The notes: generated from the sequence alone by a model not told the origin. 64,000 nucleotides of DNA from Patescibacteria group bacterium (GCA_023474425.1 JAMCXX010000002.1:196217-260216), one strand, 5' to 3'. Counted from the first letter of the stretch, positions 15,466-31,534 are shown. Translations and numbers: made by a program.

Positions 15466-15850
15466 GGGGATGTCAGTTTCGACTAAATGCGGATGAAACT
15501 TCGGCAAGTCAAGTTTGAGCCAGATCTTGGTAAAAAGGCTTAATTAAAATGCCACCGATAGTGTGAGCGAAGTTCCCGTTTACGAGCCAGCTTTTGTCTA
15601 CGCTTGAAACGTGAACCGTCCTTAAAAGCTTTCCCCAGACGAGGCTTTTTTGGGCGTGTAACAGTCTGGGATTCAAGTTTTGCGGGTTTTGGGCAAACCC
15701 GATTCTTGTAATCATCTAAATTGTCCAGCCGGTTGGCTTTTATCCCGGTCTAGCCGAGAGGCCCGCCCGGATTTATTTAAGCTAGATAAGCTTGTAGATG
15801 AAGTTTCTTGATTCATTTAGGACCCCCGTTCAATCGGGGCATCTCCACCA
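15466..15850 (+). ncRNA. ssrA: tmRNA (SsrA)
   Basis: The 5' end GGGGATGTCAGTTTCGAC pairs with the 3' end CATCTCC-A-CCA, giving an acceptor stem with the G3:U70 alanine identity pair. A T-arm CCCCG-TTCAATC-CGGGG is present. Length is 385 nt, directly downstream of smpB. The candidate tag ORF is 15551-15607. Confidence 0.9.
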
Positions 15851-18289: not shown

Positions 18290-18378
18290 TGGCGGAGGGT
18301 GTGGGAGTCGAACCCACTCACGGCTTTTGACCGTGTACGGTTTAGCAAACCGCTGCCTTACCGTCCGGCCCACCCTCC
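18290..18378 (-). tRNA. tRNA-Ser(GCU), class II, CCA encoded
   Basis: The reverse complement reads GGAGGGT-GG-GCCG..-GCGGT-TTGCTAA-ACCGT-long variable arm-TGGGTTCGACTCCCA-ACCCTCC-G-CCA. The anticodon loop TTGCTAA gives anticodon GCT. Confidence 0.9.
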
Positions 18379-20286: not shown

Positions 20287-20376
20287 GGAGAGGTCGCATA
20301 GTGGGCTAGTGCGCACGCTTGGAAAGCGTGTATGGCCGCAAGGCCATCGCGAGTTCGAATCTCGCCCTCTCCGCCA
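20287..20376 (+). tRNA. tRNA-Ser(GGA), class II, CCA encoded
   Basis: The sequence reads GGAGAGG-TC-GCAT..-CACGC-TTGGAAA-GCGTG-long variable arm-GCGAGTTCGAATCTCGC-CCTCTCC-G-CCA, giving anticodon GGA. Confidence 0.9.
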
Positions 20377-27464: not shown

Positions 27465-27535
27465 GGTTAAATGTTATAATTATGGTCGAAGACATTAATA
27501 TTCCGGTGTAGCTCAGTGGTAGAGCGAGCGCCTGT

Positions 27536-28073
27536 AGAACTTTGACAACCGCCTGGATTAAGCTAAAATAGACCTGATGGCGAAAGAAAACCGAAAGTAT
27601 AAAGATAGAGCCTCATACATGGTTGCCGCCGTTTCCAAGAGGCGAAAGCGCTTAAAGGAGATGGCTATTAAGCTTAAAGGATCGAAATGCAACTTTTGTG
27701 GCTATAGTCGGTGCGTTGGTGCTCTTGAGTTCCACCACATCAATGAGGGAACCAAGAACTTTGACCTCTCCACTCGAGGACTTACACGCAGTTGGGACAA
27801 GATCAGAGAAGAACTTAAAAAATGCATTTTAGTCTGCGCTAATTGTCATCGGGAAATCCATAGCGGTTTACTGCAGCTTCCGAAGGTAACTTCGGTTGAA
27901 AAATTGGGTGAACTGTCGGGAAGCCTAAATTCCGTTTAGCCGGAACAGGGTAATCCGCAGCCAAGTCCCGACGCAACGGTCGGGAAAGGTTCAGAGACTA
28001 TGCGCCCAATCCCGAAACGTAAAGTCGCCGGGAAAGAGATAGTCCAAGCCTTAAAGAAATTTAGGGGCACTTG
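27536..28073 (+). mobile_element. group I intron in the tRNA anticodon loop
   Basis: Conserved core elements are present: Q-like AATCCGCAGCCAAGTCC (27952-27968), R GTTCAGAGACTA (27989-28000) and S AAGAGATAGTCC (28034-28045). R and S give the GACTA/TAGTC P7 pairing. With this register the 5' exon ends in U and the intron ends in G. The intron contains an HNH ORF. Confidence 0.75.
27577..27939 (+). CDS. HNH endonuclease (intron-encoded, putative homing endonuclease)
   Basis: 120 aa with CNFCGYSRCVGALEFHHINEGTKNFDLS...LVCANCHREIHSG, the HNH pattern CxxC...HH...N...CxxCHxxxH. It lies wholly inside the intron. Confidence 0.8.
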   Translation: MAKENRKYKDRASYMVAAVSKRRKRLKEMAIKLKGSKCNFCGYSRCVGALEFHHINEGTKNFDLSTRGLTRSWDKIREELKKCILVCANCHREIHSGLLQLPKVTSVEKLGELSGSLNSV

Positions 28074-28206
28074 TAAGCGCTGCGTCGCAGGTTCGAATCC
28101 TGCCACCGGAGCCATAAACCACTCACTTCGTTCGCTCATGGCTATAGCCATCGAGTAAAAACGAAGGGAGTCGAATGTGCTGAGCGAAGTCGAAGCACTA
28201 CCCTTT

Positions 28207-28393
28207 GTGTGCCACGTCTATATTCTTAGAACTTCCAATAACAGCCTTTACATAGGACAAACCTGTAATATCTATCACCAACCGAATTAAAGATCATCAA
28301 GGAGAAAAGGGAGCTAAATATGTTAAAGATGAAGGCAAGAATTATGTGCACAGCTATTAATCCGAGGATAAAGCAGGAAACTTCTACACCTAG
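28207..28393 (+). pseudogene. decayed GIY-YIG nuclease gene (frameshift plus stops)
   Basis: Frame 1 reads VCHVYILRTSNNSLYIGQT... and stops at 28288. The +1 frame continues IKDHQGEKGAKYVKDEGKNYVHSY*SEDKAGNFYT*. It resembles the intact GIY-YIG gene at 17925-18185 and likewise sits about 90 nt downstream of a tRNA. Confidence 0.5.
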
Positions 28394-28947
28394 TAGGCGC
28401 CGAAAACGTTTAATTGGCGAACGGTACTCATACACCCCTTTTTTGTTGCTGGTCTTGAATCAAGTATCTTTACTACGTCGTTCCCAAACTTTGAATAGAA
28501 CAAGCAAAATGAGAGAAAAGCCGATAAAGAAAATTGTAACAGATGACAATTCGGTCAGATTTGGGCAATCAATGAACCGTCAGGAAAAGCAATTGACAGG
28601 TCGTGATTCGTAACCGGGGTTTAAGTAATTTAATGTTAGTAATAAGAAAAACGGTATGGATAGAACCCAAACGGTAACGATTATTTTCTGTGTTGTGCCC
28701 ATAAACACTTAGGTATTGTTTAAACAAAAGAAGCAACAACCATCGTTGCTATCGGCGGTCGAGCTTAAAGACTTACGCACGGGTTGCCCCTTCGTATCTT
28801 GAAGTCCTGCGAATAAACGCTTTTGCGGGCGGATTAAGTTGTGAATATATTTTAACTTGTTAGTTTTAGATTATCAACGGCAATTAAGCAGGTGTGTAGC
28901 GAACGATTGCGAGATCTGACCTTATAGTGCTATCGTGTCTATGCTTT

Positions 28948-29649
28948 ATGACTTACAGTCAGTTGGTGAAAAAACTGAGAGAAATAAAAGAAAGAGGCTT
29001 TGTTAGGACCCACAGGGCTAATGACACCGGTATTGGAAAAACACTCGAGGACCTACTTGGAATAAAAGAGAACAATCTGAGAGTGCCGGATGTTGGTAAG
29101 GTTGAACTCAAAGCAAAAAGGTTAGGTTCTGGCAGTATGTTGACCTTAGCCACGAAATCCCCAGAACCTAAAGGTGCCAATAAGGCATTATTTGAGAGAT
29201 ACAAATACCTAGATGAGTTTGGATACTACAACCTTCATTCCACAATCTGCGGTTCTAAGTCTAATCCTCAAGGCTTCAAACTCGCTTTTAAGGATGGGAA
29301 GCTAATGATTGAAAATAGCGGAGACATCAATGTCTATTATCCATTATCAGTCTTCGCCGATGTTCTAGTTTCTAAATCAAATAAAATACTTCTCGTTTTT
29401 GCGGAAACTAAGGGTGAGCCCAAAACTCTTAATGAACGTTTCCACTTTGTGGAATCTTATTTGTTAGAGGGACTCGATTTCGATAAGTTCAAGAAGGCAG
29501 TGGAAAACGATAAATTAAAGGTAGATATCAGAATTGGTGTTTATAGAAGCGGAAAGTCAAAAGGCAAGTTCCACGACCACGGGACCGGATTGAGGATAAG
29601 TAAAAGGGATTTCTTGGAGCTATTCGCCAGTTATAAACAGATTATTTAG
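28948..29649 (+). CDS. BcnI/MvaI-family type II restriction endonuclease
   Basis: The first ATG is at 28948; the track GTG is at 28927. MTYSQLVKKLREIKERGFVRTHRANDTGIGKTLEDLLGIKENNLRVPDVGKVELKAKRLGSGSMLTLATKSP closely parallels the BcnI N-terminus as I recall it (VGQILERQFGVQENNITLGDLGEFELKGMR...SNLTLF). Confidence 0.7.
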   Translation: MTYSQLVKKLREIKERGFVRTHRANDTGIGKTLEDLLGIKENNLRVPDVGKVELKAKRLGSGSMLTLATKSPEPKGANKALFERYKYLDEFGYYNLHSTICGSKSNPQGFKLAFKDGKLMIENSGDINVYYPLSVFADVLVSKSNKILLVFAETKGEPKTLNERFHFVESYLLEGLDFDKFKKAVENDKLKVDIRIGVYRSGKSKGKFHDHGTGLRISKRDFLELFASYKQII

Positions 29650-31534
29650 TCTTCCTTAGTATTAGAATGCTCTCCTTGGTCATTGTTTCTTCGAGGGCCC
29701 CAACCACGTTAGTAGGTGAGTTCTTGCTTGGCATTCTTTTCCCAGGAATACTTCTAACGATAATGTCCTCGCACAAAAACCCAATGTTCTCCGCCAACTC
29801 CGTTATTATAAAGTCTGTGGGAACCCTGACCTGTTTAACTAGCCTGTTTCCTACAACAACACAAAAGTACTTATTGTCTTTAAGAATTCTGTGAGCTTGC
29901 CGGAGACATTCATCAAGACCTAGGTAGAAACTTAGTACATCTCTGGCTCTGGCCTTATCGCTTCGCTCTATCTGTGATAGGACCTCTTTTAGATATTCGG
30001 ACTTGAGATTGTGTTCCAGATCTTTGGTTGGTCGGCCGCCCAGTAATTCATTATCTACTTTGCTGGCAGTATTCGGATCATCAAACATGTCAATCCATTG
30101 AGCCGAAAGTCTGGAAAACTGCCCATAGGCAACAGTTGTTCGACTGTCTCCGTAGGGTGGCGAAGTAACGATAAGGTCAATGCTGTTTTTCTCAATAATC
30201 GTATCTTTTGAGGTATCACCGTGAATAACCTTTGCCCAAGTATTATTGTTAACGTCCTTGAAGAACTCCCCCATTCCCTTAATGTTTGACTCAGCCTTTT
30301 TTCTGAAGATTGACAGAACATTGGGATTATTTTGGTCTAGTTTCTCTGGATTTATACGAACCAGTTTAAACTCTCCGTTTTTGGTGTTTGACGAAAGTCT
30401 AACAGTCTCGCTAAAAGCAACCATGAAAAAGTTCCTAACCCCTTCGTCATGTATTTCTTTAATTGCTTTTTTAATTTTTCCTAACTCTATAACCACGCTA
30501 TCCTTGAACCAGAAATCTATATTTGTGAAATTAGGTCTTTGAGTATCGCTTTCTTTGACTTTGGTTATTCTATTCAACAAGTCGAGATATTCCTTTGTAA
30601 GGATAGATGGGTCAATCTCTGTAGTTTTCGCTTTGGCAAGAAAGACAGCTAAGGGATTAAGCTCTATGCCATAGGCATTTCTTCCAAGTAGCCGGCTTTC
30701 AACCAAAGCCGTACCGGAGCCGCAGAAAATATCGCAGATAGTATCACCTTTATGGCTGTACGTCTCAATCAATCTTCTAGCGATTTGAGGTATGAACATA
30801 GCGGGATAAGTGTGGAGACCGTGCGTATAAGATTTGGTTTCTTCGCCTCTGTAGTCCCACGAGTAGTCTATTCTCCTGTTCAATTTTGATTGGGAGTTTG
30901 TGGCTTGGTTGGACTGGAATTCGAGATTTCTTATAATCTTTACTACAACCCCTCTGACTTCTACGTCCTCTCTAAAAATTGGAAGCATGGTTGGATTGGC
31001 CGGTTGTAGCCTTATTCGGTTATCTTCCCTGTAAAACTTTTTAAGAGTTGCTTGGTCCTCATCAATAATGGCCACAACCGTCTGACCGTTATCCGCGACC
31101 TTTTGTTGACGTAAGACGACAGTATCCCCATCGGAAATTCCCTCGTTTATCATGCTGTTTCCTCTGACACGAAGGGCGTAATAATCACCAAATTTTCCCA
31201 GATTATCCCTTGTGATGGTGATAGTGTCGGTAGGGTTTTCTATAGCCTCAATTGGTTCTCCAGCGGCAATAGTTCCTATTACGGGGACTTCTAGGGTCTC
31301 CGTGTTTTTTTCGATAGGTGATATTCCACGGGCTTGGTTGTTCTCCTTTAAAAGAAAGCCCTTGTCCTTTAATGTTTTTACATATTGATGAATGGTAGAG
31401 ATGGCCTTAAGTCCGAAATGAGAACTGATTTCCTCAAGGGACGGGGCATAGCCTTTTTTCTTAGAGTGGGAGGTTATAAAGTCCAGCACCTTCTTCTGTT
31501 TTGGAGTTAAAAGTCTATTGACTCTTTTAGGCAT
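29642..31534 (-). CDS. LexA (wHTH + S24 peptidase) fused to an SPPY-type (probably N4-cytosine) DNA methyltransferase
   Basis: 630 aa. Residues 1 to about 205 align along the whole of E. coli LexA: LTPKQKKVLDFI, ARGI, the cleavage site IAAGEP, the Ser motif VRGNSM and the Lys motif ATLKKF. The C-terminal part has MTase motif I DIFCGSGTALVES and motif IV LIVTSPPYGD. It is convergent with the REase gene and overlaps it by 8 nt. Confidence 0.8.
   Translation of the reverse strand: MPKRVNRLLTPKQKKVLDFITSHSKKKGYAPSLEEISSHFGLKAISTIHQYVKTLKDKGFLLKENNQARGISPIEKNTETLEVPVIGTIAAGEPIEAIENPTDTITITRDNLGKFGDYYALRVRGNSMINEGISDGDTVVLRQQKVADNGQTVVAIIDEDQATLKKFYREDNRIRLQPANPTMLPIFREDVEVRGVVVKIIRNLEFQSNQATNSQSKLNRRIDYSWDYRGEETKSYTHGLHTYPAMFIPQIARRLIETYSHKGDTICDIFCGSGTALVESRLLGRNAYGIELNPLAVFLAKAKTTEIDPSILTKEYLDLLNRITKVKESDTQRPNFTNIDFWFKDSVVIELGKIKKAIKEIHDEGVRNFFMVAFSETVRLSSNTKNGEFKLVRINPEKLDQNNPNVLSIFRKKAESNIKGMGEFFKDVNNNTWAKVIHGDTSKDTIIEKNSIDLIVTSPPYGDSRTTVAYGQFSRLSAQWIDMFDDPNTASKVDNELLGGRPTKDLEHNLKSEYLKEVLSQIERSDKARARDVLSFYLGLDECLRQAHRILKDNKYFCVVVGNRLVKQVRVPTDFIITELAENIGFLCEDIIVRSIPGKRMPSKNSPTNVVGALEETMTKESILILRKTK

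Follow-up and report, generated by a model that had tools for sequence, protein, structure and literature searches.

A putative HNH endonuclease gene within a group I intron of a Patescibacteria tRNA-Asn(GUU) gene

Introduction

The DNA analyzed here (referred to as the window) is the whole stretch of 64,000 nucleotides (nt) from a Patescibacteria group bacterium (GCA_023474425.1 JAMCXX010000002.1:196217-260216). On its plus strand, at 27502-28114, lies a tRNA-Asn(GUU) gene with an insert of 538 nt in the anticodon loop, which has the characteristics of a group I intron and contains an open reading frame (ORF) for a putative HNH endonuclease. The DnaG protein encoded in the window shares 100% identity with an NCBI protein entitled 'MAG: DNA primase [Patescibacteria group bacterium]', which identifies the host as Patescibacteria, and the related loci described below bear Patescibacteria lineage names. 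Identical copies of the locus are present in two further public, independent assemblies. The gene is composed of the following parts, numbered from the first nucleotide of the window.

27502-28114 (+): tRNA-Asn(GUU) gene, called by ARAGORN with introns allowed as i(35,538)
27502-27535 (+): 5' exon, comprising the acceptor, D arm, 5' strand of the anticodon stem and C32 U33 G34 U35 (ARAGORN, sequence)
27536-28073 (+): group I intron of 538 nt between tRNA positions 35 and 36 (sequence, Rfam, ARAGORN)
28074-28114 (+): 3' exon, comprising U36 A37 A38, the 3' strand of the anticodon stem, variable loop, T arm, 3' strand of the acceptor, G73 and CCA (ARAGORN, sequence)

Results

Structure and splice register of the interrupted tRNA gene

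When the 64-kb window was analyzed by ARAGORN without introns, the tRNA-Asn gene was missed, and only two tRNA-Ser genes were found. The intron-aware run gave a single call, which was identical for the region alone and for the whole window. The exons without the 538-nt insert form a canonical cloverleaf of 75 nt with an encoded CCA, and a canonical tRNA-Asn is obtained only once 27536-28073 is taken out. The split of tRNA-Asn(GUU) in its anticodon loop, which an earlier reading of the sequence by a model (referred to as the original prediction) had proposed, was thus borne out by both the intron-aware call and the fold of the exons.

Three registers of excision gave spliced tRNAs that were foldable by ARAGORN: Asn(GUU), Thr(GGU) and Thr(UGU). 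In this sequence, only the register CUGU/...G/UAA (slashes mark the splice sites) has both a U before the 5' splice site, U(-1), and a terminal guanosine of the intron, omegaG: the last base of the 5' exon is U, and the last intron base is G28073. The rule by which the loop CUGUUAA had been predicted is, therefore, obeyed by the Asn register only. Furthermore, U1 is paired to A72 in the exons, and G73 is followed by the encoded CCA. These predicted signs of tRNA-Asn, together with CTGT/...G/TAA junctions, were common to 75 of 80 related loci with a similar exon layout (the best 80 of at least 548 stretches encoding a relative of the ORF in species-representative genomes). Approximately 30 of the related loci were labelled Thr(tgt) by ARAGORN; a two-base Asn/Thr register ambiguity has been reported, by which ARAGORN and tFind often miscall such genes as Thr (PMC13011429). 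In a BLAST comparison of the spliced tRNA with annotated E. coli genomes, tRNA-Arg (78.9% identity) and tRNA-Asn (74.6-81.8%) were the top matches, E. coli being too distant for an isotype assignment.

Catalytic core and internal guide sequence

Four matches above the gathering score were obtained in a whole-window Rfam scan, among them Intron_gpI (RF00028) at 27858-28066 (+), with 83.4 bits (E = 9.8e-20), where the gathering score is 50, over the full model (positions 1-253). This match, whose absence would have refuted the original prediction, is far above the level expected by chance. All three near-consensus core elements noted earlier were found at their expected places: AATCCGCAGCCAAGTCC at 27952-27968, GTTCAGAGACTA at 27989-28000 and AAGAGATAGTCC at 28034-28045. 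The elements of the ribozyme were assigned as follows.

27532-27537 (+): 5' strand of P1, exon CUGU and intron AG, pairing with 27871-27876; U35 forms a U.G wobble at the splice site
27866-27870 (+): possible P10 guide GUUUA, complementary over 5 bp to UAAGC of the 3' exon (28074-28078); tentative, sequence only
27871-27876 (+): internal guide sequence (IGS; 3' strand of P1) CUGCAG (sequence and relatives)
27880-27895 (+): P2 hairpin CCGAAG-GUAA-CUUCGG with a GNRA tetraloop (pair counts in 50 sequences)
27903-28066 (+): catalytic core P3-P9 (Rfam alignment, pair counts)
27903-10/28003-10 (+): P3
27913-19/27955-60 (+): P4
27924-26/27947-49 (+): P5
27930-34/27941-45 (+): P5a
27961-62/27988-89 (+): P6
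27966-72/27979-85 (+): P6a
27996-28000/28040-44 (+): P7
28011-14/28029-32 (+): P8
28049-55/28060-66 (+): P9, with a GAAA loop

Helices P2-P9 were drawn by hand from the Rfam alignment and tested on a MAFFT alignment of 50 cores (referred to as A2). In the assigned helices, 89.2% of the cells were paired, and 40 of the 53 pairs had changes on both sides. The covariation score was 0.555, against 0.175 for shuffled partners (0/500 shuffles reached the observed value) and 0.131 or less for slid partners. Compensatory changes supported P2, P3, P4, P6, P8 and P9, and were abundant in P2, P4, P6/P6a, P8 and P9; in P2, they were found at six of the six pairs, with 98.3% of the cells paired. P7 was invariant in A2 and, therefore, uninformative for covariation. 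The minimum free energy fold gave P2, P3, P5a, P6a, P8 and P9. Both L2 (GUAA) and L9 (GAAA) are GNRA loops, and the receptor motif CCUAAG...UAUGG was found on P8 in several relatives.

P1 and the IGS, which could not be identified by eye in the earlier reading, were located in the present analysis (IGS, 27871-27876). The guide CUGCAG is placed four bases 5' of the perfect P2 hairpin, and GCAGC directly preceded a GNRA-capped P2 in all 66 relatives examined; for the assignment in relatives, a P2 hairpin was required, and sites preceded by AUC were excluded. The adjoining pair, which the first base of the intron makes with the nucleotide preceding GCAG, covaried: of 64 relatives, G-C was found in 42, A-U in 11 and G.U in 7, and the two bases were unpaired in 4.

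Peripheral helices and subgroup

In most relatives, two extra hairpins (e.g. CCCGCAAGGG, followed by a second stem) separate GAGACUAU from the 3' strand of P3, and correspond to P7.1 and P7.2, a hallmark of subgroup IA. This hallmark is absent from the window intron, in which UG alone (28001-28002) separates GAGACUA from the 3' strand of P3, and P7 and J8/7 lie 36 nt apart; in most relatives, they are 59-90 nt apart. The intron is similarly short and lacks P7.1/P7.2 at six related loci (L063, L064, L073, L074, L080 and L082; A2 columns 251-300), so that compact and extended forms coexist within one intron family. The tRNA-Asn introns at 35/36 have been classed as IA (PMC13011429). An assignment to IC3, as originally expected, was not supported by descent: the nearest relatives are published as IA, and most of them have P7.1/P7.2. 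The compact architecture of the window copy is compatible with IC3, and explains its IC3-like appearance.

The HNH ORF and a promoter-like element

27542-27569 (+): promoter-like element TTGACA-16 nt-TAAAAT in the P1 loop, ending 7 nt before the ATG (consensus scan, 11/12 matches)
27577-27939 (+): HNH endonuclease ORF of 120 amino acids (aa) in the P1 loop (ORF call, family residues)

Since P1 is formed by 27532-27537 and 27871-27876, the ORF is located in the P1 loop. The predicted position near the 5' end of the intron was correct: the ATG (27577) is 41 nt into the intron. The last ~23 codons overlap the IGS, P2, P3, P4 and P5, and the stop codon UAG (27937-27939) is in the P5a loop. The guide sequence and the first part of P2 (CAG CUU CCN) code for the C-terminal 'QLP' conserved in the family. 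Homologues of the ORF amounted to 1391 proteins at E<=1e-3, mostly of ~107 aa; relatives are named HNH endonucleases from Patescibacteria by several sources, some with a precomputed PF01844 hit. Two CxxC motifs, HH, Asn and CH...H were invariant in 28 diverse members, and all were kept in the window protein, in which the invariant residues include C38/C41, H53, H54, C87, N89, C90, H91 and H95. From these residues, we infer that the ORF encodes an HNH (beta-beta-alpha-metal) endonuclease with two CxxC pairs.

By chance, one site like the promoter-like element is expected per kb in the consensus scan. In many relatives, TGnTATAAT or TGGTATACT precedes the start codon by 3-11 nt, such elements being found in the first 10-50 nt of the intron in L006, L009, L012, L015, L024, L034, L044, L050, L058, L066, L078 and others, and TTGACA is present at the same position in a published intron from WWE3. 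This conservation suggests an intron-internal promoter, from which a short-leader or leaderless HNH mRNA may be transcribed independently of the tRNA.

The HNH gene in relatives and phages

Seventy-five of the best 80 loci were in or beside tRNA-Asn. The HNH gene was inside the tRNA-Asn intron in 69/80; in 6/80 (L011, L014, L055, L063, L073 and L081), it was located immediately upstream of a tRNA-Asn gene with an intron. In these six loci, the free-standing gene (~2501-2806) ends 30-50 nt before a tRNA-Asn (from ~2832-2850) whose intron at 35/36 is ORF-less and 178-244 nt long. The six free-standing copies were nearest to intronic ones (62-86% identity), and represented at least 3-4 separate lineages. 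A comparison of the closely related loci L006 (2423-3043) and L055 (2477-3149) showed an identical 5' exon (37/37) and a cassette and core with 77-78% identity; in one, the cassette lies between exon and core, and in the other, the exon lies between cassette and core.

The viral sample consisted of the best 80 contigs (L083-L162) of at least 545 relatives in IMG/VR; some are near-duplicates, and the independent count is lower. The phage relatives (46-62% identity) were free-standing genes within tRNA arrays. An intron-less tRNA-Asn(GUU) was the nearest tRNA on one side in 58/80 contigs, while Asn accounted for 69/498 flanking tRNAs. When the viral contigs were scanned for group I core motifs, these were found in L083 only, and the idea that the viral matches are themselves phage tRNA introns was rejected on this basis. 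L083 (IMGVR_UViG_3300001199_000352, 22 kb) has the same interrupted tRNA-Asn with the HNH gene and a group I core at 1434-2053; this contig either comes from Patescibacteria and was mis-assigned as viral, or belongs to a phage or prophage with the intron-bearing gene. Relatives were contained in 331 cultured or annotated phage records, including Bacillus phage Bastille (L164; NC_018856.1 5496-7177), in which gp259 is located between two annotated tRNA-Asn genes. More distant phage members adjoin Ile, Pro or Ser tRNAs.

Several phage tRNAs with a GUU anticodon beside the HNH gene are 82-89 nt long and have a long variable arm (class II-like) together with G73, which is odd for tRNA-Asn (L087:1189-1275, L105:1087-1173, L135:944-1032, L143:1277-1361, L159:1356-1439 and L097:1989-2070). 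In an Acinetobacter phage record, a 'tRNA-Val-GTT' is annotated ~650 nt downstream of the HNH gene.

At even odds, the HNH protein belongs to a large tRNA-gene-linked lineage of putative homing endonucleases, the closest members of which are tied to tRNA-Asn, with one cassette (promoter and ORF) in three arrangements. The pattern, an association, fits a tRNA-gene-directed endonuclease that may sit beside or inside its target, and would be analogous to collaborative homing and to intron invasion by free-standing endonucleases (PMC3984707, PMC2790892). The occurrence in three tRNA-Asn-linked contexts strengthens the case that the window protein targets tRNA-Asn genes.

Relation to published Patescibacteria introns

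Nakagawa et al. (mSystems 2026; preprint July 2025) analyzed 95 complete Patescibacteria genomes, and found group I introns at position 35/36 of 15 tRNA-Asn(GUU) genes; four of these introns encoded HNH (PF01844) endonucleases (PMC13011429). One of the tRNA-Asn introns self-spliced precisely at 35/36 in vitro, and exon ligation was blocked by mutation of omegaG to C; second, intron-less copies of tRNA-Asn were reported to be rare (PMC13011429). The type had first been listed as 'Asn.4Ug' (Williams 2020; bioRxiv 10.1101/2020.01.27.920355). The window ribozyme showed 69.8% identity (139/199 aligned core positions) with the validated intron of GCA_016700035.1, and the 5' segment of the window intron, with the ORF included, showed 69.7% identity (249/357) with the HNH-bearing WWE3 intron of GCA_000503835.1 (both from Table S3). 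The phylum, tRNA, 35/36 site, U(-1)/omegaG boundaries and, in four cases, the place of the HNH gene are the same as in the published introns, whereas the window intron differs in the absence of P7.1/P7.2 and in the ORF stop, which is in L5a and not in P2 or J2/3. These differences leave the kind unchanged.

A tRNA-Asn intron with an HNH gene has, therefore, already been published, and the window intron is a further member and no new idea. The arrangement had originally been regarded as unusual; the tRNA, site, intron and homing endonuclease family are all published and common in Patescibacteria. PMC13011429 makes no mention of the location in L1, the promoter, the free-standing copies or the phage relatives, and only the arrangement series of the endonuclease cassette may be new.

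Neighboring genes

The tRNA-Asn gene is followed, after 63 nt, by a frameshifted remnant of a GIY-YIG gene (28177-28360, +), perhaps a second, decayed homing endonuclease gene, which reached 31.9 bits against Pfam GIY-YIG after the manual repair of one frameshift. A restriction-modification pair is also located beside the tRNA (28927-29649, +, and 29642-31534, -); one gene encodes an endonuclease of the MvaI/BcnI family, and the other a protein of 629-630 aa with LexA-type DNA-binding, S24 peptidase and N4/N6 DNA methyltransferase domains, an unusual fusion. Apart from the tRNA-Asn/intron locus, the only structured RNA genes detected in the window by ARAGORN and Rfam were the following.

15466-15850 (+): tmRNA gene (Rfam, 86.5 bits, full model)
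18290-18378 (-) and 20287-20376 (+): tRNA-Ser genes (GCU, GGA; ARAGORN, Rfam)

Discussion

The results obtained suggest that a tRNA-Asn(GUU) gene of a Patescibacteria bacterium is split by a group I intron that is mobile and self-splicing, has an HNH gene and lies between U35 and U36, a reading to which we assign a probability of approximately 90%. In the precursor, exon CUGU and intron AG would pair with the guide CUGCAG to form P1 with the U35.G wobble, and a free guanosine bound at P7 would attack after U35; G28073 would then take the place of this guanosine, and the exons would be joined to give the loop CUGUUAA. The anticodon stem of the tRNA probably also holds the exons together, such an alignment of exons in tRNA introns being possible according to the Anabaena work listed in PMC3984707. 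Splicing of the window copy is expected by analogy with the homologue of ~70% identity, for which it was demonstrated in vitro (PMC13011429). The HNH gene is probably transcribed from its own promoter-like element into an mRNA that would extend as far as the ribozyme core. The predicted targets of the enzyme are intron-less tRNA-Asn genes; after their cleavage, repair from an intron-bearing copy would spread the intron and the gene jointly (homing).

Several results weigh against this reading. The P1 assignment rests on comparative evidence because the duplex energy in the single sequence was not significant, 27% of shuffled guides reaching the observed value. The duplex energy of P10 in the single sequence was not significant either (reached by 7% of the shuffles), and P10 in relatives is mostly 3 bp or fewer, giving it no comparative support. 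The single window sequence scored 14.4 bits with Pfam HNH PF01844, below the cut-off of 21.4, although the family residues are complete; an NCBIfam search of the ORF gave no match, and the PDB matches, to McrA and to the En domain of a group II intron maturase (E = 6e-4), were weak. Furthermore, the validated homologue has P7.1/P7.2 and the window copy is without them, so that activity cannot simply be assumed.

Among alternatives concerning the identity of the intron and tRNA, an intron that descends from IC3, as do the Leu, Ile and Arg tRNA introns, and only converged with the IA-type Asn introns would explain the absence of P7.1/P7.2 and P2.1, the GNRA loops L2 and L9, and the core of ~200 nt, a compactness that we take to resemble the architecture of the Azoarcus intron. 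This origin is nevertheless improbable: the core is ~70% identical to published IA introns with P7.1/P7.2, the IGS, P2 and insertion site are alike, and compact and P7.1/P7.2-bearing copies interleave in one alignment, which suggests that peripheral helices were lost within one family. It is hardly credible that the interrupted gene is a tRNA-Thr (UGU or GGU) with splice sites 1-2 nt more 5'. Although all three registers fold, and the Thr(tgt) calls of ~30 relatives by ARAGORN, and likewise by tFind, favor such a gene, the window intron would then end in U and, in one Thr register, the exon would end in G, while U1:A72 and G73 recur in the 75 relatives mentioned above. Moreover, the best BLAST matches published for such exons are intron-less tRNA-Asn genes (84-100% identity), and the sequenced product of in vitro splicing of the homologue corresponds to excision at 35/36 (PMC13011429).

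Other alternatives concern function. The locus might be a decaying relic, in which the intron no longer splices, the tRNA is dead and another tRNA-Asn gene supplies the function; the lack of P7.1/P7.2, unlike in most relatives, and the GIY-YIG pseudogene directly downstream, which indicates that decay occurs in the neighborhood, are in keeping with this. On the other hand, all tRNA stems, core helices, the invariant P7 and the J8/7 and J6/7 bases are intact, the ORF is open with every invariant residue, the compact form is found in at least five other relatives, and the locus is identical in two independent assemblies, intron-less second copies being reported as rare (PMC13011429); we consider a relic to be very improbable. 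It is also unlikely, if less remote, that the ORF never encoded, or has ceased to encode, a tRNA-Asn homing endonuclease, and is instead a maturase helper, a passenger or a nuclease directed at something else. In the PDB, the En domain of a group II intron maturase/reverse transcriptase is the top match (weak, as noted above), more distant phage relatives adjoin tRNAs for Pro, Ser and Ile, and the function of the family is predicted from sequence. However, the catalytic and zinc-binding residues are invariant in the 28 diverse members, the tie to tRNA-Asn is found in three settings (in the intron, upstream of the intron-bearing gene and beside intron-less phage copies), and ORF-less relatives of the intron self-splice in vitro (PMC13011429).

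Regarding the consequences of an interrupted tRNA-Asn gene, standard tRNA finders miss it (plain ARAGORN in the present study) or often miscall it as Thr (tFind and ARAGORN; PMC13011429), and, as a result, a genome seems to be without tRNA-Asn, and completeness estimates suffer. If the genome has no other tRNA-Asn gene, which is the usual situation in the phylum, the decoding of AAY codons depends on splicing. Asn decoding in one more genome-reduced bacterium would then probably proceed via RNA self-splicing; this point was put forward earlier by Nakagawa et al., who also provided an in vitro test (PMC13011429). The same study concluded that most tRNA introns are without endonuclease genes ('12 of 333 tRNA introns') and that horizontal transfer is limited (PMC13011429). 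If the link proposed here is true, endonuclease-linked tRNA-Asn introns are far more common than this published count, and the inference of limited horizontal spread is weakened; the three arrangements would represent a natural series of a free-standing endonuclease entering or leaving an intron. With phages included, this three-configuration link to tRNA-Asn could allow a direct test, within one family, of whether mobile introns originate by endonuclease invasion.

Comparison with known systems

Free-standing endonucleases acting by introns are known from F-CphI of cyanophage psbA ('collaborative homing') and T4 mobE/I-TevIII (PMC2790892, PMC6083498, PMC3984707). As in F-CphI-type systems, HNH relatives of the window protein are free-standing beside the same target, with an ORF-less intron (six loci) or with none (phage arrays). 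Another free-standing endonuclease for comparison is T4 SegB in a tRNA gene cluster. In contrast to the F-CphI-type systems, the HNH gene of the window is inside the intron. The tRNA-fMet intron of Synechocystis (Bonocora & Shub 2001, as cited in PMC3984707) is also a bacterial group I intron in an anticodon loop with a homing endonuclease gene. According to that citation, its endonuclease is of the PD-(D/E)XK type and has specificity for the tRNA's anticodon region; PF11645 cases are described in PMC13011429. The Synechocystis intron differs from the window intron in its tRNA, which is fMet, and in its insertion at 33/34, as well as in the fold of the endonuclease, the phylum (Cyanobacteria) and the class of intron. 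The IC3 introns of Azoarcus tRNA-Ile and cyanobacterial tRNA-Leu resemble the window intron as a small self-sufficient ribozyme in the anticodon loop (PMC3984707). They differ in the absence of an ORF, in their sites (36/37 and 34/35) and in the published class (IC versus IA). Presumably, they share with the window intron the GNRA loops on P2 and P9 and an architecture without P7.1/P7.2.

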